Positions 1,967 to 62,489 of a stretch of 64,000 bases of DNA are shown piece after piece. The stretch's first letter is position 1; the number at the start of each line of letters is the position of its first letter. The notes below the pieces were generated by a model. It worked only from the letters and a program-made list of their open reading frames with translations, made no database searches and was not told the origin of the DNA. The stretch is from contig JAHFKV010000001.1 in NCBI GenBank assembly GCA_023245155.1, positions 139,034 to 203,033 of the forward strand, in the 5' to 3' direction. The DNA is from Candidatus Staskawiczbacteria bacterium (GTDB lineage: Bacteria > Patescibacteriota > Minisyncoccia > Minisyncoccales > Staskawiczbacteraceae). A program made the translations under genes and the position numbers.

Positions 1967-1976
1967 GCAAAATAAT

Positions 1977-2080
1977 GTGTCGCAAGGTATCCAGCGGAAA
2001 TCAGGTCACAAGGAATGCTGTATACTAAAATTTTAACCTGATTTCCGAGGTGAATTTTCTCACTTCGTTCCGAAAATTCA
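1977..2080 (+). promoter_or_regulatory. conserved leader motif, copy E1 (with 11-bp-stem hairpin insert), ending at tRNA-Val 5' end
   Basis: GTGTCGCAA ... ggaaatcaggt/acctgatttcc hairpin (1996-2006/2036-2046) ... GTGAATTTTCTCACTTCGTTCCGAAAATTCA. Homologous to copies at 18319, 20863 and 52689. Confidence 0.6.
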
Positions 2081-2152
2081 GGACGCTTAGCTCAATGGCA
2101 GAGCACCTCGTTTACACCGAGGGGGTTAGGGGTTCGAGTCCCTTAGCGTCCA
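2081..2152 (+). tRNA. tRNA-Val(TAC)
   Basis: Acceptor ggacgct/agcgtcc. Anticodon stem cctcg/cgagg with loop ttTACac. T-loop ggttcgagtcc. Confidence 0.9.
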
Positions 2153-2167
2153 CCGTATTAATTATAT

Positions 2168-2242
2168 GCCGTGGTAGCTCATTGGTAGAGCAGACGCCTG
2201 AAGAGCGCCTGGTAGGGTGTTCGATTCACCCCCGCGGCACCA
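2168..2242 (+). tRNA. tRNA-Phe(GAA), encoded CCA
   Basis: Acceptor gccgtgg/ccgcggc. Anticodon loop ctGAAga. T-arm gggtgttcgattcaccc. Confidence 0.9.
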
Positions 2243-2263
2243 CTATTGAAAATTTATTACGTT

Positions 2264-2335
2264 GCGGGCGTGGTATAGTGGCTATTATACGTCCTTGCCA
2301 AGGACGAGATGGCGGTTCGATTCCGCTCGCCCGCT
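2264..2335 (+). tRNA. tRNA-Gly(GCC)
   Basis: Acceptor gcgggcg/cgcccgc. Anticodon stem cgtcc/ggacg with loop ttGCCaa. T-loop ggttcgattcc. Confidence 0.9.
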
Positions 2336-2344
2336 CATAAAAAA

Positions 2345-2365
2345 GGCCCCTAGTCGGGTCTTTTT
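2345..2365 (+). terminator. putative terminator after the tRNA cluster
   Basis: ggccc..gggtc short hairpin followed by ttttt. Confidence 0.4.
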
Positions 2366-2471
2366 AGTTAATACAAATTACGAAACTTTAATTGAACCAT
2401 GTGCATAATTATTACTATTCACATAGTTACTATTTTATTATAATGAATGAATAAAATTAAATAGTGACCTG

Positions 2472-3851
2472 ATGAAAAATAATAAAATATATTTTGCCGT
2501 AATAATAGTTGCTGTGGTGGTTGTTGGTGCAGTCTTGTTCCAAAGTGTCCTCATTCAGGATGCAGGTGGACCAAAGATTGATTATGTTTCTTTCACCAAA
2601 AGTTTGCTGGGAACAAAAATTACCATTAACGGATCTGGCTTTACAGCCTCATTGACGGGGATTAACAATACAAAAGTTAATGAAAAAATACTGCCACCAG
2701 GAAATTATATTATCATCAAAGACAAACTAATAGACAAACCTATCATCTCTCCTGATGGCAAAACACTCACCGCAGAAATCAATCTTGATGACAAGGACAA
2801 GGATTGCAAAGAAAAAGCCAAATCATGCAAAGTCAAAGTAGTTGATGCACACGGAAAATCCAGCAACGAGGCCGAGGTAGGTTCTTCCGATGAAAAGAAT
2901 GATGATGGCAAGGGTGAGCACGGCACATCCAAAAAAGGACCAACCATAACCACCTCCGTTCTGCCCGACGCTAACATATCCATGCCGTATGCATTTACCC
3001 TCTTAGCAACAGGAGGAACGCCCCCTTATACTTGGAGTGCGACACCAGTATCTAACACCTTCACTCAAACTGTACCTTATTATACCAGTGCCCTTCCCAC
3101 TGAATTCCCGCATGCTTACACGGGCCCCGCGGCTGCATTGGATTTTAATGCTACAACCGGCACTTTATCCGGAACACCACGTATTCTTAACGATCGATCA
3201 GCAAGCACCGTGTTTACTTTTAACGCCGTAGTCACCGATGCCAATGGAAACAGTTCATCCAAGCAACTCACTCTTACTACCAAAGCATTGGCAAGCGCAG
3301 TCTTTTGGGTGGAAAAGGGAAAAGATAGAGTCAACCTTGATACTTGCTATGGAACCAGGCTATCTGAAATTAATTTACTTGATGGGTATTTCTCTCCCCC
3401 TGCCCAAGACCCTCCTTGCATTAATGGTTCCACCTCATATGATGCAAAATATAGTACTGGTGCCCTTTCCAACCAATTAAGCGCCACGATTCAAATCACT
3501 GGCGGAACTTCTCCGTCAATGGATGTTGAGCTTGCAACCGATCTTGGTTCAAAAATGATATATTTGCCAAGTGTAAGCACCATTTGTAGCGGTATATATG
3601 GCATTAATCTTAATAATTCCTCTTGGGAATTTTATATTGCCAAAGATGGGTCAACGTACTTTGGCCGGCAAGATCACCAGTGCGGATATTCTGATATGTC
3701 TCCAGAACAAGCGCTTGCTCCACAAAACCTTGCCAGAGGAGCGAGCGCGGCGCCTAATTTATCATTAACTGCAACCACCACTGATTTATCTCCCAATTCC
3801 ATGAGGGCCAACTCACTATCTAATGTAATCATTAAAAAAGTGGGGCAGTAA
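2472..3851 (+). CDS. membrane-anchored secreted protein with Ig-like repeat region
   Basis: N-terminal TM helix (IYFAVIIVAVVVVGAVLF). The segment LPDANISMPYAFTLLATGGTPPYTWSA resembles putative-Ig/cadherin-like domains. Function unknown. Confidence 0.5.
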   Translation: MKNNKIYFAVIIVAVVVVGAVLFQSVLIQDAGGPKIDYVSFTKSLLGTKITINGSGFTASLTGINNTKVNEKILPPGNYIIIKDKLIDKPIISPDGKTLTAEINLDDKDKDCKEKAKSCKVKVVDAHGKSSNEAEVGSSDEKNDDGKGEHGTSKKGPTITTSVLPDANISMPYAFTLLATGGTPPYTWSATPVSNTFTQTVPYYTSALPTEFPHAYTGPAAALDFNATTGTLSGTPRILNDRSASTVFTFNAVVTDANGNSSSKQLTLTTKALASAVFWVEKGKDRVNLDTCYGTRLSEINLLDGYFSPPAQDPPCINGSTSYDAKYSTGALSNQLSATIQITGGTSPSMDVELATDLGSKMIYLPSVSTICSGIYGINLNNSSWEFYIAKDGSTYFGRQDHQCGYSDMSPEQALAPQNLARGASAAPNLSLTATTTDLSPNSMRANSLSNVIIKKVGQ

Positions 3852-5116: not shown

Positions 5117-5199
5117 TGCCCGGGGTGGGACTCGAACCCACAAGACGTTACCGTCACAGGATTTTAAGTCCTGCGTGTATACCATTCCACCACCCGGGC
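5117..5199 (-). tRNA. tRNA-Leu(TAA), long variable arm
   Basis: Reverse complement gives acceptor gcccggg/cccgggc, anticodon stem cagga/tcctg with loop ctTAAaa, and T-loop ggttcgagtcc. Confidence 0.85.
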
Positions 5200-5208
5200 A
5201 TGATTTTT

Positions 5209-5280
5209 AAGCTACTTGAGGCCTGGGCGGGAATCGCACCCGCGTATAAGGGTTTTGCAGACCCTTGCATTACTACTTTG
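5209..5280 (-). tRNA. tRNA-Cys(GCA)
   Basis: Reverse complement gives acceptor ggcctgg/ccaggcc, anticodon stem agggt/accct with loop ctGCAaa, and T-arm gcgggtgcgattcccgc. Confidence 0.8.
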
Positions 5281-5295
5281 CTACCAGGCCACATC

Positions 5296-5643: not shown

Positions 5644-7158
5644 TTAAAGGGTGCCTTTCTGCCGCTCTTCCACGTATGCGACCAATATGTCTGCTGGTTC
5701 AATTTTAACGTTTCCCTCAAACAAAATGCCGGCTTCATCGCCCTTTTTTAACAAATCAACATCTTTTTTATCGCGCTGTAAATTCACAATTCTACCCGCG
5801 CCAATTTTTTCAGGACCGCGGAATACTTCTAATTTCAATCCTTTCTTCAATTCTCCTTCACTGATTTTACCGCCCACAATCTGACGATTTTTTTCAGCCC
5901 AAAACACCAAAATAGTTTTCAACTTTCCCACATCTTTGCGCACGCTTTCAACATCTAACGACTTTTCCATGCCTTGGCGCACCTCTTGGATTAACTCATA
6001 AATAATATCAAAGGTTTTTATCCTAACTTTCTTTTGCGTATCATTTTTCATCAAGGCCAATACCCCTGGATTTATTTTCACCCGAAACCCGATAATCTGC
6101 GCCCTGGTGGTTTCAGCTAACTTGGCATCAGATTCATTAATATCGCCCACTTCAGCTTTTAATACTTTCAGTACAACCTGGTCGCCGGGCAAAGCTTTTA
6201 CCATGGCATCAATAGCTTCCAGCGAACCTTGCGTATCACCCTTTAAAATAATATGAGAGATCTTTTTATCACTAGTAGCTTGTACATCATTCTGCGGGAC
6301 ACTCCGCACCGTTGTGCGAATTTGCAGGTTTTTTGAAGCCTCCTCAATCCCAGCATAACTTTTGAACACTTCTCCAACACCCGGAACCATTTCAAATCCC
6401 AAAATAATGGCGGGCTCTCCGGGCATAGCTTTTTCCAGGGCTTTTCCTTGGAAATCTTGCAGGAGTTTTACCTTGGCTATAGCGGTATCGGTGGCAATAA
6501 TCTGCTTAAGAACCAATATACCTTTTTGCACAATCACCGTTGCCACCGGCCCTTTCAGGCTATCCATGCGCGACTCTATTACCAAACCTTCAGCCGGGCT
6601 TTTTACGTCAGCAGCCAAATCCTGTAAATCAGAAACTAGCAAAATAATTTCCAGTAATTCATCAATACCAGTTTTTTCTTTAGCAGAAACTTCCACGCTG
6701 GGCACCTGGCCGCCCATGTCTTCCACGTACACCTCAACTTTTGCTAATTCGTTTTTAATTTTTTGCGGGTCAGCAGTTGGCAAGTCAATTTTATTTAATA
6801 CCACAATCATGGGAATGCCCGCGGTTTTTATGGCGCCAATAGCTTCTTTAGTTTGAGGTTGCACGCTTTGGGCAGCATCCACCACCAATAAGGCAACATC
6901 GGCCACGCTCGCTCCGCGGGTACGCATGGCTGAAAAGGCTTCGTGGCCTGGCGTATCAATAAAGGTAATTTTATGGCCATTATGTTCAACTTCATAGGCT
7001 CCAATATGCTGGGTGATACCGCCTGATTCTTTAGCAGTAATTTTAAAATCCTTAACAGCTTCCAGCAATGAAGATTTGCCATGGTCCACGTGCCCCAAAA
7101 CCACCACTACGGGAGGGCGCTTGAAAGTAACTTCGGTTGTTTTCTTGCTTTTAACCAT
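5644..7158 (-). CDS. infB: translation initiation factor IF-2 (short form)
   Basis: GTPase motifs GHVDHGKSSLL, DTPGHEAF and NKID, plus the IF-2 C-terminal domains. It lacks the long N-terminal region. Confidence 0.95.
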   Translation of the reverse strand: MVKSKKTTEVTFKRPPVVVVLGHVDHGKSSLLEAVKDFKITAKESGGITQHIGAYEVEHNGHKITFIDTPGHEAFSAMRTRGASVADVALLVVDAAQSVQPQTKEAIGAIKTAGIPMIVVLNKIDLPTADPQKIKNELAKVEVYVEDMGGQVPSVEVSAKEKTGIDELLEIILLVSDLQDLAADVKSPAEGLVIESRMDSLKGPVATVIVQKGILVLKQIIATDTAIAKVKLLQDFQGKALEKAMPGEPAIILGFEMVPGVGEVFKSYAGIEEASKNLQIRTTVRSVPQNDVQATSDKKISHIILKGDTQGSLEAIDAMVKALPGDQVVLKVLKAEVGDINESDAKLAETTRAQIIGFRVKINPGVLALMKNDTQKKVRIKTFDIIYELIQEVRQGMEKSLDVESVRKDVGKLKTILVFWAEKNRQIVGGKISEGELKKGLKLEVFRGPEKIGAGRIVNLQRDKKDVDLLKKGDEAGILFEGNVKIEPADILVAYVEERQKGTL

Positions 7159-7242: not shown

Positions 7243-7899
7243 CTAGGCCCGGCACCTTCGCAGCTCGCCGTACGTTTGCACTTGCTTGGGGAAACGTACG
7301 AATTGTTTGCAAACCCTGCAGATAATCTGATCTTCGGCGCTCGTAAGCGTTTTTCGGTCCATCCACCCCCTGCAGCCCGCATGCACACCCACGCAGCCAG
7401 ACAGCTCGCTTTCATTTCTGGTGTGATTGACGAAGTACTTCGGATCTATCAAAAGTGGCAGGGGTGGGTACTCGAGCAAAACGATTCTTTGCCCAAGCTG
7501 GACTGGTTCAAGCGGAACGCTCCGCTCAACTTCCGCGCACACCGCGTCGTAAAGCTCGTTTTCGTCTTCATCCCGGTTGATCCGTCCGAAATGGACGCGC
7601 TTGACCGCGCAGTCTAGCCAGCCCGTGGCAAAGTGGTCCGGTTCGCCCCGGCCATCAATCACCCTGTACGAACACAGGGAATTGACGGCGAAGGTGTCAC
7701 CAGTCGGACGACTATCCTGGTCCAGATAGTTGCCCCGGAGCTTACCGGGCAAAACATCGACTGGTTCAAAACCAGCGGCCTTGACGAGCTCAAGAAGAAC
7801 CTTTTCTCCTGGGCGATCAACTTTTTCGATTCGCGGCCAGTCGTGTCCCAACACCAGTTGAACGAATGGCATTATGACAGCATGGGGTTGCAGAGACAT
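7243..7899 (-). CDS. hypothetical protein encoded on GC-rich island A
   Basis: Start moved to M38 (MSLQPH...), preceded by AAAGGA. The longer ORF would overlap tRNA-Ser. 35/60 GC in lines 7321 and 7561. No family recognised. C-terminal Cys/His cluster (CVGVHAGC...CRVC). Confidence 0.5.
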   Translation of the reverse strand: MSLQPHAVIMPFVQLVLGHDWPRIEKVDRPGEKVLLELVKAAGFEPVDVLPGKLRGNYLDQDSRPTGDTFAVNSLCSYRVIDGRGEPDHFATGWLDCAVKRVHFGRINRDEDENELYDAVCAEVERSVPLEPVQLGQRIVLLEYPPLPLLIDPKYFVNHTRNESELSGCVGVHAGCRGWMDRKTLTSAEDQIICRVCKQFVRFPKQVQTYGELRRCRA

Positions 7900-8000: not shown

Positions 8001-8083
8001 CGGAGGGCACAGGATTCGAACCTGCACGGGATTTCTCCCACTGGTTTTCGAAACCAGCGCATTAGCCGTTCTGCCAACCCTCC
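8001..8083 (-). tRNA. tRNA-Ser(CGA), long variable arm
   Basis: Reverse complement gives acceptor ggagggt/gccctcc, anticodon stem ctggt/accag with loop ttCGAaa, and T-loop ggttcgaatcc. Confidence 0.85.
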
Positions 8084-8098
8084 AAAATGTTAATAATG

Positions 8099-8170
8099 TG
8101 CCCCCATCAGGAATTGAACCCAAATTTTTCCCTTAGGACGGGAACGTTCTATCCGTTGAACTATGGAGGC
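8099..8170 (-). tRNA. tRNA-Arg(CCT)
   Basis: Reverse complement gives acceptor gcctcca/tgggggc, anticodon stem ttccc/gggaa with loop gtCCTaa, and T-loop ggttcaattcc. Confidence 0.8.
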
Positions 8171-11288: not shown

Positions 11289-11362
11289 TGGAGCGGGTAT
11301 GGGGAGTCGAACCCCACTCATTAGCTTGGAAAGCTAAGGTAATACCGATATACGATACCCGC
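11289..11362 (-). tRNA. tRNA-Gly(TCC), encoded CCA
   Basis: Reverse complement gives acceptor gcgggta/tacccgc, anticodon stem ttagc/gctaa with loop ttTCCaa, and T-loop ggttcgactcc. Confidence 0.85.
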
Positions 11363-11379
11363 TTGCAATATTCTTCTTG

Positions 11380-11450
11380 TCGGGGTACTCGGATTCGAAC
11401 CGAGATCAAACGGTCCCAAACCGTTCGTGCTACCGTTGCACCATACCCCG
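11380..11450 (-). tRNA. tRNA-Pro(TGG)
   Basis: Reverse complement gives acceptor cggggta/taccccg, anticodon stem aacgg/ccgtt with loop ttTGGga, and T-loop ggttcgaatcc. Confidence 0.85.
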
Positions 11451-11524
11451 ATATAAACATATACTATAAGAAAATCCCCGTCTTGTCAAAGGAAAAAATT
11501 TGTGATAATATTGAACTGAAATTC

Positions 11525-11596
11525 GCCCTCGTAGCTCAATGGATAGAGCTTCGCTCTTCTAAGGCGCAGATGTGGGTTCGATTCCTACCGAGGGCA
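11525..11596 (+). tRNA. tRNA-Arg(TCT)
   Basis: Acceptor gccctcg/cgagggc. Anticodon loop ctTCTaa. T-loop ggttcgattcc. Confidence 0.85.
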
Positions 11597-11616
11597 CAGG
11601 GAAGAATTTAAATTAT

Positions 11617-11692
11617 GGAGGCCGTAGTGTAGTGGCCAGCACAACGCTCTGTGGCAGCGTTAGCGGGAGTTCGAATCTCCTCGGTCTCCCCA
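11617..11692 (+). tRNA. tRNA-His(GTG) with encoded G-1 and CCA
   Basis: Extra 5' G opposite C73. Acceptor gaggccg/cggtctc. Anticodon stem acgct/agcgt with loop ctGTGgc. T-loop agttcgaatct. Confidence 0.85.
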
Positions 11693-22636: not shown

Positions 22637-22707
22637 TCGGGACAGGGCGAATTGAACACCCGCTACACGACCCCCAGCCGTGCGTACTACCTCTATACGA
22701 CAGCCCG
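22637..22707 (-). tRNA. tRNA-Pro(GGG) with imperfect acceptor stem
   Basis: Reverse complement gives anticodon stem cacgg/tcgtg with loop ctGGGgg and T-arm gggtgttcaattcgccc. The acceptor cgggctg/tgtcccg has one C:U mismatch and two G:U pairs. Confidence 0.6.
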
Positions 22708-22717
22708 TAATAATATA

Positions 22718-23959
22718 TTATTTATAAACGTAATACAGATTCCCGCCAAAGTCATCTGTAAAAAAGAAACTAGAATCAGAGTCGGGTAAAATATCTACTG
22801 GGCGGGCGTAGCACGTACCATTGTGTAAAAATCCAGTGACAAAATCTGTTACTGTTCCTTGCTGGTCAATGTGTACTATTTTATATCCATGCGCCAGTGA
22901 AACCGTACTTGAACCGTGCAGTGAAAGTAAAAAACTATTAGCCAATTCCAATGCCGCACTAGCTCCGAAAAATGCCAACCCAAGCGGAGCTGCGTGGGCG
23001 GGGAAGGCGGCGGCGGCCGAAGGGACTGCTGAGCAATCAATAGGGTGATCCCACGCTTGAGTATTGTTTGTATAGATCTTTGATTGGTATTGATAGCAAT
23101 ATGGCCAGCCATAATTAGTGCCAGGTTTGATTAGATACAAAGCCTCTTCGGGTTTATCGTCACCCAGTTTATCAGCGCCCATAGCAGAGACATATAGTTG
23201 ATCACCTTTAAAATAAAGGCCGACGGCGTTGCGAAGTCCACTAGCAATGATTTGCTGGTTTGAACCATTTGCATCCATTTGTATAATAGAAGCCCGCATT
23301 GGCTCTTCGGTTTTTTCTTCGCACGAATCACAACTTGAACCAACCGAAACATACACCTTATCATTGTGTACTTTGACGGTACGAGTCAAATGCCAACCGC
23401 CATATTTGTAACTTAGCCCGTAGGCAGGAAATGTTGCCAGCACTTCTGGTGCTGACGTGGGGACAATTTCACCAAGCGTAAAGCGGTAGCGAACCAGCTG
23501 GTCAGTAAGCGCAACGTAGAGCCAGTTGACTCCAATCGGATCTGTGTAAAATGCAACACTGTTGGGATTTCGTAAACCAGAAAGATAGGTGGTGCGGCTT
23601 TCAAATTTTTTGGTGGCAGTATTAAAGTGATCCAAAATATATATTTTGCCCTCTGAATTATCGGATAAATCTTTCATATCAGTTACAAAAAGCCGCCCAT
23701 CGGGACTTTTGGCCATAAAACGTACTCTGTTTAAGCCGGTTGCGGCAGTTGCAATATTAAATCCTTTGGGAATTGAAAGCGAGAATGCAGTTCCGGCGGC
23801 GGTTAGCACATGTGGTTCAAGTGTAAAAGGAACCGATGAGCTAGAATTATTTTGGACTGGCTGGGGCACTTTTGAAGGTTTCAAATAAAAAACAATGCCA
23901 ACTATGGCTATCGCAACAACTGCTAAAAAAATTATGGTCTTTTTTTGAAAGGAATTCAT
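22718..23959 (-). CDS. PQQ-dependent sugar (glucose/sorbosone) dehydrogenase-like beta-propeller protein, membrane anchored
   Basis: GLRNPNSVAF, GGWHLTRTV, SGLRNAVGL and GTNYGWPYCY motifs, plus an N-terminal TM helix. Confidence 0.65.
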   Translation of the reverse strand: MNSFQKKTIIFLAVVAIAIVGIVFYLKPSKVPQPVQNNSSSSVPFTLEPHVLTAAGTAFSLSIPKGFNIATAATGLNRVRFMAKSPDGRLFVTDMKDLSDNSEGKIYILDHFNTATKKFESRTTYLSGLRNPNSVAFYTDPIGVNWLYVALTDQLVRYRFTLGEIVPTSAPEVLATFPAYGLSYKYGGWHLTRTVKVHNDKVYVSVGSSCDSCEEKTEEPMRASIIQMDANGSNQQIIASGLRNAVGLYFKGDQLYVSAMGADKLGDDKPEEALYLIKPGTNYGWPYCYQYQSKIYTNNTQAWDHPIDCSAVPSAAAAFPAHAAPLGLAFFGASAALELANSFLLSLHGSSTVSLAHGYKIVHIDQQGTVTDFVTGFLHNGTCYARPVDILPDSDSSFFFTDDFGGNLYYVYK

Positions 23960-23960
23960 T

Positions 23961-25430
23961 TTACTTCACCCAATATTTGCTTTTTACGACAGAATCTTCT
24001 TTGCTTTGGACTTCCTCTTTTTCCCCCTTCGACTTTTCGGCCAATTCTTTTAATTCTTTGTCGGGCAAACCAGCCAACATTATAGCCTCTTTTTCCAAAA
24101 AAGCTTTAGTATTTTTTTTAGAGTCGTCCAAAACATGTCCTAACAGAATGTCTAGGATTTGTCCTATCTTCGGTCCCGGCGTAATTTTTAATAATTCCAT
24201 CAAATCATTTCCATTAACCTTAAGCATTTTTACAGAAATGGGATCCTTGGACACTTTCTCAATGATGTATTTTAAGTGGCGCAGTTTGTATGGCTCAGCC
24301 TTGGGCACACCACTGCCAATTCTATCTGCTTCCCGCACCTGCATTAATTCTTCCATGTTTTCTGGCCCTACATTTTTTATTAATCGGCGCACGGAAGATT
24401 CTGTTACCTCGTCCACATTGTAATAAAACATATGGTAACGGATGAGGGTAACTATTTTTTCAATATCCTTATTGGGAAACTTCAGGCGGTTTAAAATCTG
24501 AAACGCCATTTTAGCACCCACCATTTCGTGGTTGTAAAACGTGGCTTCTTTGCCTTCGCCGGTTTTTGAACGGGGTTTACCTACGTCATGCAGGAGCGCA
24601 GCAATCCGCACGTGCAAGTTGTACTTTTTTTTAGCGGTGTATTCTAAGGCTTTAAGGGCATGCCAATAGCAATCGTATACATGGTGCTTGTTCTGGCTAA
24701 CGCCATAATTTTCCTGCAATTCAGGGAGAATAAACTTCAATAAATTCAGACTGCGCAACAGTTCAATACCATCGGCCGCTTTTGGCGCCATAATCATTTT
24801 GACAAATTCATCGCGGATGCGTTCTTTTGAAACGGCCTCAATCCAAACATTATTTTTCTTAACTGCCTCAGCAGTTTTTGGTTCAATCTCAAAACTCAAC
24901 GTTGTGGCAAACCGCACCGCCCGCAGCATTCGCAAGGCATCTTCAGAAAAACGTTCGTTAGCGTCGCCCACCGTCCTGATGATTTTTTTCTTTAAATTGG
25001 CTTGACCATCAAATGGGTCGATTACTTTCTTATCCAAGCCCATCGCCATCGCATTAATCGTAAAATCGCGCCGACTCAAATCTTCTTCAAGTGTCTTGGC
25101 ATATTTGACCGCATCCGGATGCCGCTTGTCAGAATACTTAGCTTCTAAACGATATGTCGTAACTTCCACGATGCCGTCGGCAGTTTTTACCCCTACGGTC
25201 AAAAAATTATTTTCATAAAAACTATCAGGAAAGACTTTTTGAACGTCTTCTGGCTTAGCGTTAGTGGTCACATCCCAATCTTTTGGCTCAATACCCAATA
25301 AAAAATCACGCACGCATCCGCCCACGATGTAAGCTTCAAACCCGGCTTTTTGCAAAACCGATAAAATATTTTTTACTTCTCTGGGAATGACCATTACGCT
25401 TATGCTATCTGAAAAATTGATTAATTTCAA
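23961..25430 (-). CDS. cca: CCA-adding enzyme / poly(A) polymerase-family nucleotidyltransferase with HD domain
   Basis: GGCVRDFLLG...DWDV head domain, RDFTINAMA, and HD domain LLHDVGKP. Confidence 0.85.
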   Translation of the reverse strand: MKLINFSDSISVMVIPREVKNILSVLQKAGFEAYIVGGCVRDFLLGIEPKDWDVTTNAKPEDVQKVFPDSFYENNFLTVGVKTADGIVEVTTYRLEAKYSDKRHPDAVKYAKTLEEDLSRRDFTINAMAMGLDKKVIDPFDGQANLKKKIIRTVGDANERFSEDALRMLRAVRFATTLSFEIEPKTAEAVKKNNVWIEAVSKERIRDEFVKMIMAPKAADGIELLRSLNLLKFILPELQENYGVSQNKHHVYDCYWHALKALEYTAKKKYNLHVRIAALLHDVGKPRSKTGEGKEATFYNHEMVGAKMAFQILNRLKFPNKDIEKIVTLIRYHMFYYNVDEVTESSVRRLIKNVGPENMEELMQVREADRIGSGVPKAEPYKLRHLKYIIEKVSKDPISVKMLKVNGNDLMELLKITPGPKIGQILDILLGHVLDDSKKNTKAFLEKEAIMLAGLPDKELKELAEKSKGEKEEVQSKEDSVVKSKYWVK

Positions 25431-25466
25431 TTATTCTGGTAAAGTAATGCAACGGTTTGATTTACC

Positions 25467-25541
25467 GCTCCCGTAGTGAAATGGATATCACGACAGGCTT
25501 CGAACCTGTTATTGGGAGTTCGAATCTCTCCGGGAGCACCA
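25467..25541 (+). tRNA. tRNA-Arg(TCG), encoded CCA
   Basis: Acceptor gctcccg/cgggagc. Anticodon stem acagg/cctgt with loop ctTCGaa. T-loop agttcgaatct. Confidence 0.85.
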
Positions 25542-25551
25542 AGCAACATTT

Positions 25552-25998
25552 ATGAAAAAGTTTCTTAAAGTATTTTTTGCATCATCTGCGCTAATGTTAA
25601 TGCTCTCAGGAGTAGCCTTTGCCTATGGGCCGGGTTGTGACGCTGTTACCCATAAAGACCCTGCTGCCACTGGAATCGTGCCCTGCGGAGTCAGCAAAGA
25701 CGCCACCGGAGTATTAACCTGCCCCTGCGAAATACCCCATTTTTTCATCATGATACGAAATGTTTATATTTTCGTTACCTGGACCATTGCCTTACCGCTA
25801 GCCGGGCTACTCATTGTGATTGGGGGAGTGTTGCTGATTATTTCAGGTGCCAACCAGAACATGTTTGATTTAGGAAAAAGGCTGTTGTGGGGCGCATTCT
25901 GGGGAGTGGTGCTGGTCTTTTGCGCCTGGATTATTATTAATATTATTTTCATGACATTGGGAATTAATATGAACCCTGGGGCAATATTTTTCACGTAA
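25552..25998 (+). CDS. T4SS pilin-like (TrbC/VirB2-like) small membrane protein
   Basis: Signal peptide and Cys-rich stretch, then two TM helices joined by ISGANQNMFDLGKRL. Same architecture as the N-terminus of 42806..44446. Confidence 0.55.
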   Translation: MKKFLKVFFASSALMLMLSGVAFAYGPGCDAVTHKDPAATGIVPCGVSKDATGVLTCPCEIPHFFIMIRNVYIFVTWTIALPLAGLLIVIGGVLLIISGANQNMFDLGKRLLWGAFWGVVLVFCAWIIINIIFMTLGINMNPGAIFFT

Positions 25999-26022
25999 CA
26001 ACTATTGTAGTCCAGTATCCCT

Positions 26023-26775
26023 ATGTGCTATAATAGGGGTATGAATAACTATGCACCACGCAGGAAAAAAGCTATAAAATTAAGAAAAGATGGCTTAAGT
26101 TATGGAGAAATAAAAAAGAAGCTAAACGTTTCAAAAAGTACTTTAAGTTATTGGCTAAAAAATATACCACTCACCGAAGAACAGAAAAAAAGGCTTTACA
26201 TAAAAAATACCTTAGCATTAAACACTGGATATTATAGTCAAAAAGAAAGAAGGGCGCGCGAAGTCGCTGAAATTATAAAAAACGCAGGAAAAGAAATAAG
26301 TGACTTCATATCGCTAGAAAGCTATCGCTTATTTGGGGCAGCGCTCTATTGGGCAGAGGGCAATAAGAAAAATAGCCTAGGAATTACTAACTCCGACCCC
26401 TATCTTATTTTATTTATGGTAAAGTGGTTTGAAAGAGTATTAGGAGCTTCGCCCAAAAAAGATTTAAAAGCCCATCTCAATATTTATCCTCAACAAAACG
26501 AGCAAGATATTAAACAATTTTGGTCGCAATTAACAGGTATCCCCTTAAAAAACTTTGGAAAAAGTTTCGTAAAGCCATTAAGCAAGAATTATAAAAAAAA
26601 TAATTTATATTACGGAACAATAAAAGTTAAGGTGCACAAAGGCACCGACCGAAGACATAGAATTTTTGGATGGATTAAAAAAGTATTAAAAGATATCACA
26701 CCAAGAACAGAACTAATTCAGCAGGAATGGAGAAAACTCACCGAGGTTTCGCGAGCAATTAATTTACCAAAATAA
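26023..26775 (+). CDS. HTH-domain protein with possible LAGLIDADG-like endonuclease core
   Basis: N-terminal LRKDGLSYGEIKKKLNVSKSTLSYWLK (HTH). ALYWAEGNKKNSLGITNSDPYLILFMVKWF resembles a degenerate LAGLIDADG block. Ends 5 nt before tRNA-Lys. Confidence 0.4.
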   Translation: MCYNRGMNNYAPRRKKAIKLRKDGLSYGEIKKKLNVSKSTLSYWLKNIPLTEEQKKRLYIKNTLALNTGYYSQKERRAREVAEIIKNAGKEISDFISLESYRLFGAALYWAEGNKKNSLGITNSDPYLILFMVKWFERVLGASPKKDLKAHLNIYPQQNEQDIKQFWSQLTGIPLKNFGKSFVKPLSKNYKKNNLYYGTIKVKVHKGTDRRHRIFGWIKKVLKDITPRTELIQQEWRKLTEVSRAINLPK

Positions 26776-26780
26776 TACTT

Positions 26781-26853
26781 GCGCCTGTAGCTCAGTTGGT
26801 AGAGCTCCCGACTCTTAATCGGATGGTCCTGGGTTCGAGCCCCAGCGGGCGCA
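26781..26853 (+). tRNA. tRNA-Lys(CTT)
   Basis: Acceptor gcgcctg/cgggcgc. Anticodon loop ctCTTaa. T-loop ggttcgagccc. Confidence 0.85.
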
Positions 26854-34429: not shown

Positions 34430-35209
34430 ATGAAACCCAATAAACTCTTAGGCCAACATTTTTTAGTGGACAAGAAGGCACTAGCTAAGATTGTAGCCGC
34501 TGCTAACATCCAAAAGGACGAAACGGTTTTAGAAATTGGACCAGGCACGGGACTTCTCACCAAAGAATTGGCCGCCAGAGCCCAAAAAGTGATTACGATT
34601 GAAAAAGACCCATCCATGGTACATATTCTCAAAGAGACCTTAGGCAATTTTGAAAATGTAGAGATTATTCAGGGCGATGCGTTAAGTTATCAAGTTATAA
34701 AGTTATCAAGTTATAAAGTTGTTGCAAATATTCCCTACTATATTACCGCACCCATTATTAGGAAGTTTTTGGAAGAAAAAGATAAGCCTGCTGAAATGGT
34801 GCTCATGGTGCAAAAAGAGGTGGCCCAGCGCATTTGTGCCAAGCCTCCCGATATGAGCATCTTGGCCGTTTCGGTACAATTTTACGCAACTTGCAAAATT
34901 ATTTCGCGCGTATCAAAAGGATGTTTTTGGCCGGTTCCCAAGGTTGATTCTGCTATTATAAAAATTGTGCCGCAGATAACTGTGGATAACCAGGGGATTA
35001 ACCGGGACGCATTTTTCAGGGTGGTAAAGGCTGGTTTTCTACACCCCCGCAAAAAAATAATCGGCAATTTGCGCGAGGGGCTTAAAATACATAAAGAACA
35101 AATCACGTCCTGGCTTATTGATAACAAAATTGATCCGGGCAGGCGGGCAGAGACATTAACTCTTCAAGAATGGGCCTCCTTGACAAGAGGACTTGATATG
35201 ATAACATAG
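34430..35209 (+). CDS. rsmA: 16S rRNA (adenine1518/1519-N6)-dimethyltransferase
   Basis: LGQHFLVD, VLEIGPGTGLLT and NIPYYITAP motifs. Confidence 0.9.
   Translation: MKPNKLLGQHFLVDKKALAKIVAAANIQKDETVLEIGPGTGLLTKELAARAQKVITIEKDPSMVHILKETLGNFENVEIIQGDALSYQVIKLSSYKVVANIPYYITAPIIRKFLEEKDKPAEMVLMVQKEVAQRICAKPPDMSILAVSVQFYATCKIISRVSKGCFWPVPKVDSAIIKIVPQITVDNQGINRDAFFRVVKAGFLHPRKKIIGNLREGLKIHKEQITSWLIDNKIDPGRRAETLTLQEWASLTRGLDMIT
34684..34720 (+). repeat. in-frame tandem repeat (2.3 x 16 nt aagttatcaagttata) inside rsmA, related to the 59961/60357 inverted repeats
   Basis: aagttatcaagttata|aagttatcaagttata|aagtt encodes LSYQVIKLSSYKVV. It shares perfect 15- and 17-nt blocks with the left repeat at 59961-59995. 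Confidence 0.8.
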
Positions 35210-35307: not shown

Positions 35308-35613
35308 ATGAAGACCGAAGCTCCGAAAACTGAAGACCGACGACGGCCACAGCGAAGTCGTCGGGAAAAGGCGAGCACCGCCGAACCGAAAAAACGGAAT
35401 TTGTTGCCCGTCGCGATTATGGCGGGCCTTAGTGGACTGGCGGCCACCGTCCTCGTGGTCACCATCGTCGCCATCGGAGGACTTCTCTTCCTCCGGGCTA
35501 GCGCTAACGCGGACGCCCGGGCGATTGAAACCCGAGAAACCCAGAAGACCAAGGAGGCCCACGACAACTACGACGCTCTCATGAAGGGGGCAAAAATGAA
35601 GGGGAGTAATTAA
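35308..35613 (+). CDS. small single-TM protein encoded on GC-rich island C
   Basis: 101 aa with an Arg-rich N-terminus (DRRRPQRSRRE) and one TM helix (LLPVAIMAGLSGLAATVLVVTIVAIGGLLFL). 36/60 GC in line 35341. Confidence 0.5.
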   Translation: MKTEAPKTEDRRRPQRSRREKASTAEPKKRNLLPVAIMAGLSGLAATVLVVTIVAIGGLLFLRASANADARAIETRETQKTKEAHDNYDALMKGAKMKGSN

Positions 35614-52688: not shown

Positions 52689-52740
52689 GAATTTGGAACG
52701 AAGTGAGAAATTCGCAGCTATTGCGACACCTTACTTCGCT
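52689..52740 (-). promoter_or_regulatory. conserved leader motif, copy E4 (5' half overlaps the comEA stop region)
   Basis: Gene orientation: CGAAGTAAGGTGTCGCAATAGCTGCGAATTTCTCACTTCGTTCCAAATTC-ATG(yebC). Confidence 0.6.
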
Positions 52741-53212
52741 TTAGTTTAATAAATAGTAATACGAGTAATCCTAAAATAACAATTACTGCTCCTGTACTGG
52801 TAAAAAGGGGCCGTGGATCGGGCATGGTGCTTACATCTATAGCCGTACTCAACGCGGCCGGAGCTACACTAACATTATTATCAATTTTTTTGGTTTTTGG
52901 CAAGCTGGATGCTTTGGCAGACCTTGGTTTTGCTGCCGGCGGCGCGAGCGCGACCATTTCAGGAGCCACATAGGCCAACCCTTGATCCTTTATTTTCTTC
53001 AAAGTGGCCTGGCCAATACCCTTAACATGTAATAAATCATCAACGTAATAGTAGGGGTGTCCGTCAACAATCCGCTGTGCCAGTGCCGGTCCAATTCCGG
53101 CTAGCCCGTCAAGCTGTTTTATGCTGGCCGTATTGATATCAACGCGATCGGCTGCTAATAGGAAAGCTGGCCACACAAATAATAGTAAAAAAGCCAGCCA
53201 AAGCTTTTTCAT
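52718..53212 (-). CDS. comEA: ComEA-like helix-hairpin-helix DNA-binding protein
   Basis: Signal/TM segment, then [26 protein letters not shown]...[12 protein letters not shown] (HhH motifs), then a C-terminal TM helix. Confidence 0.75.
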
Positions 53213-54219
53213 AGTAAATTGTTTTGCCGATTGTATTTTATTCCCAAATGGTCATAGGCTAATTTTGAGGCTACTCTTCCCTTTGGTGTACGTTCTAAAA
53301 ATCCCAGTTGCATTAAATAAGGTTCATACATGTCTAAAATCGTATCTTCTTCTTCAAGGGCGGCTGCTGCCAATGATTGCAGTCCCACCGGCCCGCCATC
53401 AAACTTTTCAATCAAAGCCAGTAAGATTTTAATGTCGCCTGGCTCTAGCCCCATTTCATCAACTTCCAAGGAGGCTAGTGCATGTTCGGTAATTTCCCGG
53501 GTTGCGATGCCCGTGCTTTTAACTTCTGCAAAATCCCGCACTCGTTTTAGCAGCCGGTTGGCCACCCGTGGGGTAAAGCGACTACGCGTGGCAATTACTT
53601 TAATGGCATCGGGCTCAATGCTTACTCCCAACAACTTGGCGCTCCGCTCAATAATTTTTTCAATATCTTTAGGTTTATAAAAATTTAATTGAAATGTTGC
53701 CCCAAAGCGATTCCTTAGCGGGGAAGAAAGCATGCCCGGCCGGGTGGTGGCGCCCACTAGGGTGAACCGCGGCAATTTTAATTCCATGGTTCGGGCCATG
53801 GGGCCTTTTCCTAAAATCAAATTCAATTTATATTCTTCCATAGCCGGATATAGGTATTCTTCAATGGATTTATGCATCCGATGTATTTCGTCTAAAAACA
53901 GCACATCACCTTCTTGTAAATTGGTTAAGATAGCCGCCAAATCTCCCGCTCGCTCAATGGCTGGGCCTGAAGTCGCGCGGATTTTCTTGCCCATTTCCAA
54001 TGCTATCAGTTGGGCTAAGGTGGTTTTACCCAAACCCGAATTTCCATAGAGCAATACATGGTCGGGCGAGCCTCCCCGCTGCTTGGCGGCGGCCAAAATC
54101 ACCTTAATATTTTCTTTAATATTCTCTTGGCCGACATAATCAGCCCAGGTTTTAGGGCGAAGGGCAGAATCGATGACCTGGTCATTAAGACTAGGTTTTT
54201 CGGGTGGGGGGCTTGACAT
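53209..54219 (-). CDS. ruvB: Holliday junction branch migration ATPase RuvB
   Basis: [12 protein letters not shown], Walker [12 protein letters not shown], Walker [10 protein letters not shown], and the C-terminal winged-helix region. Confidence 0.95.
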
Positions 54220-59131: not shown

Positions 59132-59962
59132 ATGCCAGAATTACCCGAGGTTCAGACTACGGTAAACGGTTTGCAAAAAAGGGTCCTTGGCAGGACCTTT
59201 GTTCGTGTGTGGTCAGATTGGCAGAAGACAGTTACATTCCCCAGAAAATTTGCTGCATTTAAAAAACAGCTCAAAGGTAAGAAAATTCTACGGGTTTGGC
59301 GACGGGGTAAAAATGTGATTTTTGAATTGTCGGATGGATATTCTTTGTTAATTCATATGAAAATGACTGGGCATTTGCTGGTTGAGCCCTGGAATACACA
59401 AGATCCCATGAATGGCTATTTGCATATAATGTTCTTCCTGGATGATGGTCGTAAAATTGCCCTGTCTGATTTGCGCAAGTTCGCCAAAGTTGAATTACGG
59501 CCAACGAAAGAGCTGCTGCAAATCTTTGAGGGACTGGGGCCAGAGCCCTTAGAAAAAATTTTTACGTTTGAAAAATTTGAAAAATTATTTGTAAGAAAAA
59601 AGGGGAAGGTAAAAGAAATTATTATGCGGCCAAGTTTTATTGCGGGTATCGGCAACATTTATGCTTCCGAAGCTTTGTGGTGGGCAAAGATTCATCCAGC
59701 TAAAGATGTTTCGCGTTTGAATGCTCGGGAATTAAAACTATTATACGGCGCGATAAAAAAAGTATTACAACTGGGCATTAACTTTGGCGGTGACAGTTTT
59801 TCGGATTACCGGGACGTGGATGGCAATAAGGGAGAGTTTGAGGGTTCTAAAAAAGTCTATCAACGCGAAGGTGAAAAGTGTTTTCGGTGCAAGTCAGTCA
59901 TTAAAAGATTGGTTATTGCGCAGCGCAGTTCGTTTTATTGCCCGCGGTGTCAGAGGCTATAG
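59132..59962 (+). CDS. mutM: formamidopyrimidine-DNA glycosylase
   Basis: MPELPEVQT N-terminus, H2TH region, and C-terminal zinc finger CFRC...CPRCQ. Confidence 0.9.
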   Translation: MPELPEVQTTVNGLQKRVLGRTFVRVWSDWQKTVTFPRKFAAFKKQLKGKKILRVWRRGKNVIFELSDGYSLLIHMKMTGHLLVEPWNTQDPMNGYLHIMFFLDDGRKIALSDLRKFAKVELRPTKELLQIFEGLGPEPLEKIFTFEKFEKLFVRKKGKVKEIIMRPSFIAGIGNIYASEALWWAKIHPAKDVSRLNARELKLLYGAIKKVLQLGINFGGDSFSDYRDVDGNKGEFEGSKKVYQREGEKCFRCKSVIKRLVIAQRSSFYCPRCQRL

Positions 59963-59995
59963 TTATCAAGTTATAATGTTATAAAGTTATCAAGT
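59961..59995 (+). repeat. left arm of 35-bp imperfect inverted repeat flanking the four-helix-bundle gene
   Basis: agttatcaagttataatgttataaagttatcaagt matches the reverse complement of 60357-60391 at 30 of 35 positions. Confidence 0.85.
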
Positions 59996-59997
59996 CG

Positions 59998-60342
59998 GTG
60001 AAAATTGAAAAATTTGAAGAATTAATATGTTGGCAGAAAAGCAAAGAACTGTCCTTGCTGATGTATGGGTTATTTAAGAATAACAGAGATTTTAGTTTCT
60101 GTGATCAGATTAAGCGCGCAGTTGTGAGCGTTATGAATAATATAGCTGAAGGATTTGAGCGCCAAACCAACAAGGAGTTTACTCAATTTTTATATATTGC
60201 AAAAGGATCTTGTGGTGAGGCGAGATCGATGTGCTACATAGCACTGGAATTGGGATACATTTCGAAAGAGGATTTTGAAAAAGTAAATAGATTATCCCTC
60301 GATACAGCTAGATTAATTTCAGGCCTAATTAAGGTTTTATAG
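59998..60342 (+). CDS. four-helix-bundle protein (23S rRNA intervening-sequence protein family)
   Basis: FEELICWQKSKELSLLMY...IKRAVVSVMNNIAEGFERQTNKEFTQFLYIAKGSCGEARSMCYIALELGYI is the family signature. GTG start. Confidence 0.85.
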   Translation: MKIEKFEELICWQKSKELSLLMYGLFKNNRDFSFCDQIKRAVVSVMNNIAEGFERQTNKEFTQFLYIAKGSCGEARSMCYIALELGYISKEDFEKVNRLSLDTARLISGLIKVL

Positions 60343-60356
60343 AGCTTTCTTTTAGA

Positions 60357-60391
60357 ACTTGATAACATTAGAACTTGATAACTTTATAACT
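60357..60391 (-). repeat. right arm of the inverted repeat
   Basis: acttgataacattagaacttgataactttataact. Ends 5 nt before the holA start. Confidence 0.85.
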
Positions 60392-60396
60392 TCGTT

Positions 60397-61332
60397 ATGA
60401 TTATATTTCTATACGGGCCGGATTCCTATCGGTCCAAACAAAAATTAGATGAAATAATCAGTCACTATAAAGAGTCCGGGAAAAGCGGCTTGAATTTAAT
60501 TTCTGTTGATGCCAAGGAAAACGCTTTCCCTGATTTTTACGATACCCTTAGGGTTTCCTCCATGTTTGCTGAAAAAAAATTGGTTATTATAAAAAATGTG
60601 TTTGCCGGTAAGGGTTTTCAGGAGGAATTATTGGAAGAGATTAAAAACATAGAAAATTTAAAGGATGTGGTGGTTGTTTATGAAACCGAAGCGCCCGATC
60701 AGCGCTTAAAAATTTTTAAAACTCTCGTAAAAACCTGCAAATGCCAGGAATTTGCCCTATTAGAGGGGTCGGCTTTAAAGCAATGGGCTCAAAAAGAATT
60801 TGAACGTCTTGGGCAAAAATCCAATCTTGATGCCGCAGATCTTTTAGTGCAGTATGTGGGCAATGATTTGTGGCGTCTTGCGGCTGAAATAAAAAAATTG
60901 GGAAATTTTAAAAATGGAGCAACAATCAAAAAAGAAGATGTGTTGCTCATGGTAAAACCGCGCCTTGAAGTGGATATTTTTAAAACTATTGACGCTATGG
61001 CGGCAAAAAACAGACCACAAGCCCTTTCGTTGGTAAAAAAACATTTAGACAATGGCGAAGCGCCCCTGTATATTTTGAGTATGATTGCTTACCAGTATAA
61101 AAATTTACTGGTGGTAAAAGAATTGGCTCAAAAAGGATTTATGTATGCTTCTATTGTGAAAAAAAGCGGCCTGCACCCTTTTGTGGTTAAAAAAACGTAC
61201 TTTGCCTCAAGCCAGTTTTCACTTGAAGAGCTCAAAATTGCTTATCATAATATTTTCCAAATGGATTTAGATATCAAAACAGGCAAGATTGATCAGGAGG
61301 CAGCCTTGGAATTATTGGTCTCAAGCATCTAA
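60397..61332 (+). CDS. holA: DNA polymerase III delta subunit
   Basis: 311 aa with the MIIFLYGPDSYRSKQKLDEI start and a delta-like C-terminal helical domain. Confidence 0.8.
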   Translation: MIIFLYGPDSYRSKQKLDEIISHYKESGKSGLNLISVDAKENAFPDFYDTLRVSSMFAEKKLVIIKNVFAGKGFQEELLEEIKNIENLKDVVVVYETEAPDQRLKIFKTLVKTCKCQEFALLEGSALKQWAQKEFERLGQKSNLDAADLLVQYVGNDLWRLAAEIKKLGNFKNGATIKKEDVLLMVKPRLEVDIFKTIDAMAAKNRPQALSLVKKHLDNGEAPLYILSMIAYQYKNLLVVKELAQKGFMYASIVKKSGLHPFVVKKTYFASSQFSLEELKIAYHNIFQMDLDIKTGKIDQEAALELLVSSI

Positions 61333-61333
61333 A

Positions 61334-61357
61334 AACCGCGGTTTCTGCCGCGGTTTT
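61334..61357. terminator. bidirectional terminator between holA and rpsT
   Basis: aaccgcgg/ccgcggtt stem flanked by an A-run and a T-run. Confidence 0.8.
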
Positions 61358-61370
61358 TAGATGAGTAAAT

Positions 61371-61692: not shown

Positions 61693-61740
61693 AGAAAAAA
61701 ACAAGCGCGACAAGTGGGACTAGATTCCACTTGTCGCGCT
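61693..61740 (-). terminator. terminator of island E gene
   Basis: agcgcgacaagtgg/ccacttgtcgcgct 14-bp perfect stem, followed on the minus strand by TGTTTTTTTCT. Confidence 0.85.
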
Positions 61741-61769
61741 TCCGTTAGTTTATCGCCTGGGTAGGCGGT

Positions 61770-62489
61770 TTACTTTTTCGCCGGTTGATCCGGCGGCTTC
61801 GGTGCCGGCGGAACGTCGGCTGGCAATGCTCTGCCGTCCGGTGGCGGAGGCGTTTCAGCCTTGGCGTCAGGCGCCGTCGGCTTGCCCATCATTTTGTCTC
61901 GGGCCGCTTTGGCTTCCGCAACTTTCCGCTGCATCTCTGCGAGCTTGCCGGCCGATTCTTCTTTCCCGGCTGCCCTCTTTTGCTCATCCTCTGCGACCTG
62001 GCGTTCTCGCTCCGCGCGCCCAGCTTCCCAATCCGCCTGGCGCTTTTGTTCTGCGGCCGCTTCTGCCTCCGCGGCCTCGGTGCGCTCGTCGTGAGCCTTC
62101 TTGAGCTCATCAACGACGCTCTTGAGTTCGGCGTGACCCTGGCCTCTGGCTTCTATCTCCGCGACCTTGAGGCAGAGATCCCGTAGGACACCTGCCAAAT
62201 CGCCGTCAGCCTCAGCGAGGATGGTGATTTCATCCTCTTGCCTCCTGTCAACTGGGTCCATTTGCAGTGCCTGGTCGGCCATGATCTTTTTCCCTTTCCC
62301 TGTGTAGTGGTGGTGGATGACCTGAATCGTAATTGAGCGACCCGCCGATGATCGCTTTCGCGCCGTCGGCTCTGACTTGGTTTCTGGTTTGGCGTTTTTA
62401 GGACGCCGAGCTTTGCCCTGCCCCTGGTTTTTGGGCGGACTCCGCGGCTTTTTAGAAGCTGCGGACGGCTTCTTTTTTCTGGCGGACAT
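61770..62489 (-). CDS. hypothetical basic / coiled-coil / Pro-rich protein encoded on GC-rich island E
   Basis: 239 aa with a K/R/P-rich N-terminus, an A/E/R coiled-coil centre and a PPAPKPP tail. 43/60 GC in line 61801. Strong SD GAAAGGAGGG 3 nt before the ATG. Confidence 0.5.
   Translation of the reverse strand: MSARKKKPSAASKKPRSPPKNQGQGKARRPKNAKPETKSEPTARKRSSAGRSITIQVIHHHYTGKGKKIMADQALQMDPVDRRQEDEITILAEADGDLAGVLRDLCLKVAEIEARGQGHAELKSVVDELKKAHDERTEAAEAEAAAEQKRQADWEAGRAERERQVAEDEQKRAAGKEESAGKLAEMQRKVAEAKAARDKMMGKPTAPDAKAETPPPPDGRALPADVPPAPKPPDQPAKK

Follow-up and report, generated by a model that had tools for sequence, protein, structure and literature searches.

Here we describe a cassette of 431 nt (positions 59961-60391) between mutM and holA in a 64-kb stretch of the genome of a Candidatus Staskawiczbacteria bacterium, a member of the Patescibacteria, also known as the candidate phyla radiation (CPR), as its homologs indicate. 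The whole stretch is referred to as the window and is the scope of all in-window scans. The cassette consists of two inverted arms built of the octamer AAGTTNNN, which enclose a gene for a 114-aa four-helix-bundle (4HB) protein of the PF05635 family. We consider it probable, with some reservation, that the cassette arose long ago by insertion of a palindromic element of the type known as intervening sequences (IVSs) in rRNA genes, and that its arms loop the cargo gene out of the operon transcript. The same arms recur at many sites in the CPR, including the interior of a 23S rRNA gene, and this arm family ties the rRNA IVSs to palindromic elements that are widespread as a family.

The cassette is fitted tightly between its neighbors (Table 1). 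The TAG stop codon of mutM (59960-59962) shares two nucleotides with the start of the 5′ arm, the GTG start of the cargo gene comes right after that arm, and the ATG of holA lies 4-5 nt past the end of the 3′ arm. An earlier note on this DNA, made from the sequence alone, had described a 114-aa gene between 35-nt arms that fills the mutM-holA gap, and the reading frame (59998-60342) and the 30/35 complementarity of the arms bear this out. We scanned the cassette for a promoter or a terminator of its own and found none that was convincing; as the three genes are also co-oriented, holA is probably carried on the same transcript as mutM and the cassette. The arms themselves, evaluated as intrinsic terminators, are A+T-rich, are devoid of a U tract and drew no terminator call. 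Beyond holA, a G+C-rich hairpin with runs of A and of T on its two sides separates holA from the convergent rpsT and is likely a bidirectional terminator that ends the operon. No rRNA was found in the window, and the cassette is situated between protein-coding genes, not inside an rRNA gene.

The paired arms (59961-59995 and 60357-60391) are 35 nt each and 86% complementary. Their core of 18 nt, GTTATAAAGTTATCAAGT (59978-59995 and 60373-60390), pairs without a mismatch. Both are made of an 8-nt unit in tandem: Tandem Repeats Finder (TRF) resolved the 5′ arm as (A)AGTTATNA repeated 4.4 times, and the 3′ arm as the complement repeated 5.2 times. When the 64 kb were scanned with four units in tandem, (AAGTTATA)4, the 5′ arm matched at 28 of 32 positions, compared to a maximum of 22 in shuffled sequence, and exactly three arrays emerged, one for each arm and one more within rsmA (34684-34720). 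Single octamer units are not enriched in the window outside of these arrays. The octamer structure of the arms and the array in rsmA had both escaped the earlier note. The arms constitute the only inverted repeat in the whole window that is at least 26 nt long and at least 80% complementary within 1.5 kb, and their alignment score of 26 stands against 7.7 ± 1.5 in 2000 shuffles (maximum 13.5). The RNA fold of the arm pair, which the note had proposed as a check, gave −27.7 kcal/mol for the arms joined by a GAAA loop, compared to −11.8 ± 2.9 for shuffles. The arms paired in both the minimum-free-energy (MFE) structure and the centroid, and within the 471-nt RNA the mean probability of a 5′-arm base pairing with the 3′ arm was 0.68. 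Terminal complementary sequences that are predicted to fold into an extended stem, as in an IVS, are thus present. The RNA matched no known family in Rfam, even at E ≤ 10.

The cargo protein scores 110.3 bits against PF05635 (cut-off 33.8) and 103.4 bits against TIGR02436 (cut-off 24), and its length is within the ~110-130 aa of the family. The AlphaFold2 (AF2) model, with a predicted local distance difference test (pLDDT) score of 96.8, has four helices and the expected four-helix-bundle fold. In Foldseek comparisons its template-modeling (TM) scores were 0.90 to 2GSC, 0.84 to 2RLD (a structure of the “S23 ribosomal protein family”) and 0.77 to Avd (4DWL), the last of these in agreement with the structural relation to Avd that the earlier note had mentioned. 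Each of the three entries holds five chains. The similarity to 2GSC is also evident in sequence (phmmer, E = 7.7e-14). A hand count of residues gives a net charge of roughly +2, hence the protein has no marked basic character. A role as a defense system was rejected, as no PADLOC model matched. Among the orthologs of four genomes the proportion of synonymous differences (pS) is saturated at ~0.75, while that of nonsynonymous differences (pN) is 0.06-0.19; identity is 68-89% for the 4HB protein, 68-75% for MutM and 65-70% for HolA. Judged by these substitution patterns, the cargo gene is under strong purifying selection. The low pN against a saturated pS, in a protein at least as conserved as its flanks, marks a functional, vertically inherited gene and not a decaying passenger.

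For each of the three closest 4HB proteins that we traced (89, 76 and 69% identity) the gene lies between mutM and holA, and in the loci L003, L004 and L008 the cassette is found at this junction with inverted AAGTT-type arrays on both sides. More distant relatives (L114, L115, L117 and L120, with HolA 44-56% identical) have only 0-6 nt between mutM and holA, with neither a gene nor arrays. This is the empty site for which the earlier note had suggested looking, and it provides the presence and absence at orthologous positions that is typical of dispersed palindromic elements such as miniature transposable elements with inverted repeats (MITEs) and repetitive extragenic palindromic (REP) sequences. 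Since the close relatives are occupied and the distant ones empty, the cassette is an old insertion. It entered an originally tight junction, one that was probably translationally coupled. The suggestion of a mobile or RNA-processed module therefore stands in so far as the cassette is an insertion and a member of a multi-site family; recent mobility at this locus does not, as the cassette is old and vertically inherited.

Several observations were made on the junctions of these relatives. The 5′ arm of the closest relative (L003, 3846-3930) is split by an unrelated insert of ~85 nt, with ~3 units at the outer end and 1 unit beside the start codon. In L004 an extra “empty” AAGTT hairpin (6654-6712) lies by rpsT, ~1.3 kb downstream of the mutM-holA cassette; the window has no hairpin at that place. 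A PF13366 (PDDEXK_3) gene stands between holA and rpsT in L008 (6330-6830) and in L003 (5270-5770), and the window lacks it. In L008 this gene has an inverted repeat of ~40 nt, GCGATCCTAATTTACGAATTACATCCGAATGAYCCGAATA, on both sides, with its start codon inside the repeat, and in L003 the downstream copy matches only partly. The neighboring junction thus has a hairpin cassette of a second kind, likewise with a small gene.

The arms are not confined to mutM-holA. From the list of homologs we sampled 4HB proteins at other sites (P0054, P0107, P0027, P0069, P0086 and P0072), and the survey covered eight additional CPR insertion sites, each independent of the others. All eight carry AAGTT-type flanking arrays, and these are simple inverted arms everywhere except at L139. 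The contexts are diverse, including gap-rpiB, two hypothetical genes, two ABC ATPases, a toxin–antitoxin (TA)-containing region, a polysaccharide locus and two genes for family-4 glycosyltransferases (GT4). At every site with both flanks on one strand, the cargo has the orientation of the flanking genes. Divergent PF05635 genes (L022, L070, L083 and L088) likewise have inverted tandem-unit arms, made of other unit sequences. We then scanned GTDB, one genome per species, for the exact 18-mer of the arms. The scan returned 104 loci, 71 of them labelled CPR and distributed across many phyla, with up to 8 loci per metagenome-assembled genome (MAG) and 3-8 in several genomes. By a rough estimate, the CPR count exceeds what chance would give in so small a share of the database by one order of magnitude or more, and the ~30 non-CPR loci are near the chance expectation. 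Most of the non-CPR matches have no PF05635 gene beside them and may have arisen by chance; on this account we do not generalize past Patescibacteria. With these 104 loci and the 51 hairpins of the fetched loci described below, the search for further copies of the arms that the earlier note had recommended was productive, and the cassette, in a window that holds three arrays, belongs to dispersed copies with the same inverted repeats, as is the case for MITE- or REP-like elements.

A census of hairpins was taken in 880 kb of fetched loci. Array pairs of the polarity AGTT...AACT numbered 51, and those of the opposite polarity 5. The AAGTT core is 98% conserved, with a consensus common to many CPR phyla. 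The loop lengths are bimodal, either 1-120 nt (42 cases) or 342-381 nt, the latter holding a 4HB gene (7 cases); one pair, in L029, has a 516-nt loop and no gene. For the 25 co-directional cases, the median distance from stop codon to arm is 0 nt, and a median of 6 nt separates the arm from the start codon that follows. Two of the “empty” loops retain the ends of a 4HB gene. The loop at L022 185-278 has codons 1-7 (MKIEKFE, read from the other strand; E = 5e-5), and that at L021 3039-3111 has the last codons (E = 0.002). Some “empty” hairpins are therefore internal-deletion derivatives.

Individual loci of the collection depart from the simple design. At L139 (1371-2413) the arrays around the 4HB gene are hugely expanded, with 113 nt of AAGTT units upstream and, downstream, 330 nt of AAGTT units followed directly by 233 nt of AACTT units, which amounts to a giant hairpin. 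The idea that five units per arm might correspond to one pentamer of the protein was rejected, as loaded arms are ~35-44 nt, empty ones are shorter, and those of L139 have the lengths just given. At L039 (6996-7972) a 905-nt loop contains a 168-aa P-loop protein (an AAA_33-like kinase) and then a 4HB gene between the arms. In L082, from the Flavobacteriaceae, a 4HB gene is located between two directly repeated hairpins. At L141 (6-395) an RVT_1 fragment is 1.1 kb upstream of a 4HB cassette, with a glycosyltransferase gene between the two.

The connection to rRNA comes from L101, a locus of a Campbellbacteria MAG. Here the 18-mer is inside a 23S rRNA gene (minus strand, 457-3056; Rfam LSU, 1210 bits). 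The hairpin of AAGTT arrays includes the exact 18-mer of the window and is inserted at a place corresponding to E. coli 23S ~1164-1170, which is helix 45. In the helix-25 region the same gene is interrupted again, by an insertion with arms of tandem CTAATTT units; the coordinates of the two insertions in L101 are 1245-1325 and 2030-2130. Several more insertions, of 52-154 nt, are seen in its Rfam alignment. An IVS is characteristically situated in an rRNA gene at a helix tip (helix 9, 25 or 45 of the 23S) and is excised by RNase III, with no religation. Helix 45 is the classical IVS site, where RNase III cuts the IVSs and the S23p open reading frame (ORF) can be part of them (PMC4990558). The IVS of Coxiella is 428 nt long, with a 28-bp terminal stem that is cut by RNase III and the S23p ORF in the loop (PMC4990558). 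ORFs of the 23S_rRNA_IVP family have been described within insertions of CPR 16S and 23S rRNA genes (PMC11270868), and an old proposal holds that an IVS is a mobile element whose ORF serves its mobility (quoted in PMC4990558). The likeness of our cassette to rRNA IVSs, which the earlier note had pointed out, is supported by comparison with the ORF-bearing 23S IVSs of Leptospira and Coxiella burnetii: a size of ~430 nt, a location inside a transcribed unit, inverted repeats that form a long terminal stem, a PF05635 ORF in the loop, and an arm type identical to that of the L101 helix-45 insertion. The IVS-like reading of the cassette is thus largely right. The differences are that the cassette is between two protein-coding genes and that its arms are tandem octamer arrays; moreover, its protein is under strong purifying selection, unlike the case of Coxiella, and excision by RNase III is proposed for the cassette by analogy.

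Arrays also exist without a partner. The third array of the window is in frame within rsmA (ksgA) and encodes LSYQVIKLSSYKVV, in a variable loop between the segments GDAL and VVANIPYY. Solo AAGTTATN arrays that are in frame and sense-oriented are similarly found in housekeeping genes, within the variable loops of RsmA, PrmC/HemK, aminoacyl-tRNA synthetase (aaRS)-like ORFs and RNase HII, where they encode peptides of the SYKVIKL- or VIKLSSYKV-type. The RsmA proteins of the window and of L019 are 61% identical, the PrmC proteins of L032 and L110 are 60% identical, and in both pairs nearly identical array DNA occupies the same loop. Near-identical array DNA in proteins of ~60% identity points to either a constraint at the nucleotide level or recurrent insertion. 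Native YKVV codons, TATAAAGTTGTT, may be the seed for the solo arrays.

On the reading that we favor, the element consists of the two inverted terminal arms, with about five AAGTTNNN octamers each, and the PF05635 cargo gene. The family, which is common in Patescibacteria, comprises loaded forms, with the gene in a loop of ~340-380 nt, and “empty” forms with a loop of 1-120 nt, and its copies are situated where a transcript can tolerate an extra hairpin, that is, at co-directional stop-to-start junctions and at the tip of 23S helix 45. In a read-through mutM-4HB-holA RNA the arms would pair as a duplex of ~35 bp, with the cargo looped out. This would bring the mutM stop beside the holA start and would restore the ancestral spacing of 0-6 nt. 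The duplex could then serve as a substrate for RNase III, with release of the 4HB mRNA, by analogy with the rRNA IVSs and with the Correia elements of Neisseria. RNase III needs roughly two helical turns of duplex, and ~35 bp is long enough. A signature of RNase III itself was found in the array-bearing CPR loci L025 and L094. The conservation of the AAGTT core and of the polarity across phyla suggests that a sequence-specific factor recognizes the arms, or else that the arms have a recent common origin; it is a matter of speculation that this factor is the 4HB protein itself.

A number of results weigh against this proposal. At variable positions the arms of one hairpin are 77.0% complementary, and those of unrelated hairpins 79.6%, hence there is no hairpin-specific covariation, and for a given 5′ arm its own 3′ partner ranks at a median of 33 of 51. 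Neither is there an excess of G·U pairs on the sense strand, with 13 wobble-type mismatches vs 22 of the A·C type. A duplex-energy matrix shows no discrimination in the AAGTT class; in the divergent subfamilies (L022, L070, L083 and L088) each arm pairs best with its own partner. The stem is thus not seen to be kept by compensatory changes, as would be expected of an IVS, and a lack of covariation, which the earlier note had counted as evidence against its own proposal, is formally what we find. What accounts for the pairing is a consensus that the family shares and that is present in inverted orientation, and not a demonstrable selection for an RNA stem. Furthermore, the 10:1 polarity of the arms is not predicted by a role in RNA only, and such a role leaves unexplained the solo arrays that are conserved at the DNA level in coding loops and the arrays that have grown to hundreds of nucleotides in L139. 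The S23p ORF of Coxiella is reported to be probably not translated (PMC4990558), in contrast to the selected protein of the cassette. Finally, a comparison of the four occupied junctions with the empty sites disclosed no target-site duplication, and no transposase was found in the flanks examined, hence neither of these two hallmarks of a MITE- or REP-like element is seen; mobility is inferred from presence and absence and from the many sites only.

The polarity, the AAGTT conservation, the L139 arrays and the solo arrays argue for recognition of the unit or for ongoing homogenization, and they lend weight to a possibility that we rate as fairly unlikely and yet take seriously, namely that the arms act as DNA. 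They would be terminal inverted repeats that consist of tandem subterminal sites bound by a transposase-like factor, a host protein or a 4HB oligomer, similar to elements whose ends have several binding sites, and the RNA hairpin would be incidental. A core that is the same in many CPR phyla, a strict polarity (51 vs 5), the missing signatures of covariation and wobble pairing, the nucleotide-conserved solo arrays in proteins only ~60% identical and the expansion and contraction of the arrays are all in keeping with binding at the DNA level. Yet neither an associated transposase or recombinase nor a target-site duplication is seen, and the 4HB protein is not markedly basic, at a charge of ~+2, and is matched by no PADLOC model. 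The copy in 23S helix 45 must fold as RNA to be tolerated, and the exact stop-to-start placement with co-oriented cargo indicates a constraint at the level of the transcript. An old IVS-type insertion that is looped out of the mRNA remains our preferred account. A broader proposal, which we regard as speculative and rather doubtful, is that the PF05635 genes with octamer arms are the autonomous members, and the empty hairpins the non-autonomous members, of an unrecognized class of mobile elements. The 4HB protein would recognize the AAGTT arrays, as DNA or RNA, and would promote insertion at transcribed “safe” positions, such as operon stop/start junctions, rRNA helix tips and protein surface loops.

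Other explanations for the cassette fare less well. That the 4HB gene is an ordinary resident, with arms that are a slippage-prone A+T-rich spacer or a host regulatory hairpin that arose in situ (for coupling, attenuation or termination), is very unlikely. The gene is indeed conserved and syntenic in four genomes, the arrays are clearly prone to expansion and the arms adjoin a stop and a start codon, but the existence of an empty mutM-holA site, the absence from the arms of a U tract or terminator call, and a complementarity that shuffles never reach are at odds with it, and it is largely refuted by the same arms at eight unrelated 4HB sites, in empty hairpins and in rRNA. It is less credible still that the octamer arrays are a DNA-uptake or genome-wide recognition signal, with the 4HB association being secondary. 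Inverted pairs between genes together with sense solo copies in the same coding loops of distant genomes, and conservation across the whole radiation, would fit such a signal; a density of 3 arrays in 64 kb, with single units not enriched elsewhere, does not, and both the tight association with the 4HB cargo and the helix-45 copy would be left without an explanation. The fold shared with Avd, and the relation of PF05635 to Avd described in the literature (PMC10053308), call to mind a remnant of a diversity-generating retroelement (DGR), which we consider exceedingly improbable. No RVT family is present within ±10 kb of the cassette, and only three ORFs of at least 150 aa in the window have a YxDD motif (Table 1), none of which resembles a reverse transcriptase (RT); one of them, the 177-aa ORF at 52721-53251, was assigned only by the RuvC position in the gene list of the contig, without a profile scan of its own. 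The earlier note had likewise seen no RT in the window. There is no match to the bAvd family of Pfam at E ≤ 0.01, and the arms are the only long repeats found, although pairs of template and variable repeats were not specifically searched for. With no RT within ±10 kb or among the ORFs of the window, and no bAvd match, membership in a DGR was rejected.

Comparison with known systems places the cassette near several of them. With the Correia elements of Neisseria and other MITE-like palindromes, which are co-transcribed and which RNase III binds or cuts (PMC2649163), it shares many copies per genome, inverted repeats, an intergenic location, co-transcription, a hairpin that is a potential RNase III substrate, and presence or absence that differs between relatives. 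It is distinct from the Correia elements in that no target-site duplication is seen, that the arms are built of internal repeats, that a gene is present in some copies, and that the family spans a whole radiation of phyla. The REP sequences, their hairpin-forming doublets (REPINs) and the REP-associated tyrosine transposases (RAYTs) are similar as dispersed intergenic palindromic repeats with one gene that is itself flanked by inverted repeats. In contrast to a RAYT, the cargo is a four-helix bundle without known nuclease or transposase chemistry or an HUH motif, and many loaded copies are possible. Avd has the same four-helix-bundle protomer fold, whereas the cassette has no RT, its protein does not match the bAvd profile, and the sequence identity to Avd is ~8%. 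Our literature searches disclosed no account of such arms, nor of IVS-like cassettes carried in mRNA.

Table 1. Positions of the cassette, its flanks and other features of the window, and of solo arrays in other loci (designated by L numbers).
Feature	Position	Strand	Basis or description
mutM (fpg), upstream flank; YxDD-bearing ORF	59132..59962	+	TIGR00577, 266 bits
5′ arm	59961..59995 (extendable to 59958-59997)	+	~4.4 tandem units AGTTATNA; repeat search, TRF period 8
Cargo, 114-aa 4HB gene	59998..60342	+	PF05635/TIGR02436
3′ arm	60351..60392	+	~5.2 units NNNAACTT, reverse-complementary to those of the 5′ arm
holA (DNA polymerase III delta), downstream flank	60397..61332	+	TIGR01128, 240 bits
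G+C-rich hairpin between A run and T run	61331..61359		read directly from the sequence
Solo octamer array in frame in rsmA/ksgA	34684..34720	+	perfect 16-nt unit x 2.3; (AAGTTATA)4 scan, TRF
Solo array, L019	~200-260		
Solo array, L032	~960-1040		
Solo array, L110	~7635-7715		
Further solo array, L042	~7433		
Further solo array, L064	~4131		
Further solo array, L025	~3810		
DUF5671 protein; YxDD-bearing ORF of at least 150 aa			Pfam
177-aa ORF; YxDD-bearing	52721-53251		RuvC position in contig gene list
tRNA genes	1881-2335, 5117-5290, 8001-8170, 11292-11689, 22637-26853		

Elsewhere in the window, two ORFs, at 61770-62489 (minus strand) and 35308-35613 (plus strand), have a much higher G+C content than their surroundings, and both are low-complexity and rich in K, P, A and E. 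The 239-aa product of one of them has no Pfam match, and its counterparts among relatives vary in length from 117 to 239 aa. Its apparent terminator is a 17-bp palindrome without mismatches that is accompanied by a run of T (61703-61741). The 64 kb also contain fifteen tRNA genes, several of them tightly clustered.

The rRNA IVSs and their S23p/PF05635 ORF have been without an explanation since the early 1990s, and the proposal that they are mobile was never testable. The question now gains material, in the form of copies outside of rRNA, datable insertions, empty sites, an ORF under selection, the motif AAGTTNNN and empty derivatives. If PF05635 genes and octamer arms were indeed members of a mobile class, this would explain the origin of the bacterial rRNA IVSs, as well as the thousands of scattered genes annotated as “four helix bundle protein”. 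The finding suggests why PF05635 genes are so numerous in Patescibacteria, and it is an example of how room can be made for a 430-nt insertion at a tightly coupled operon junction of a streamlined genome. Both the origin of the IVSs and the role of PF05635 thus become experimentally approachable.

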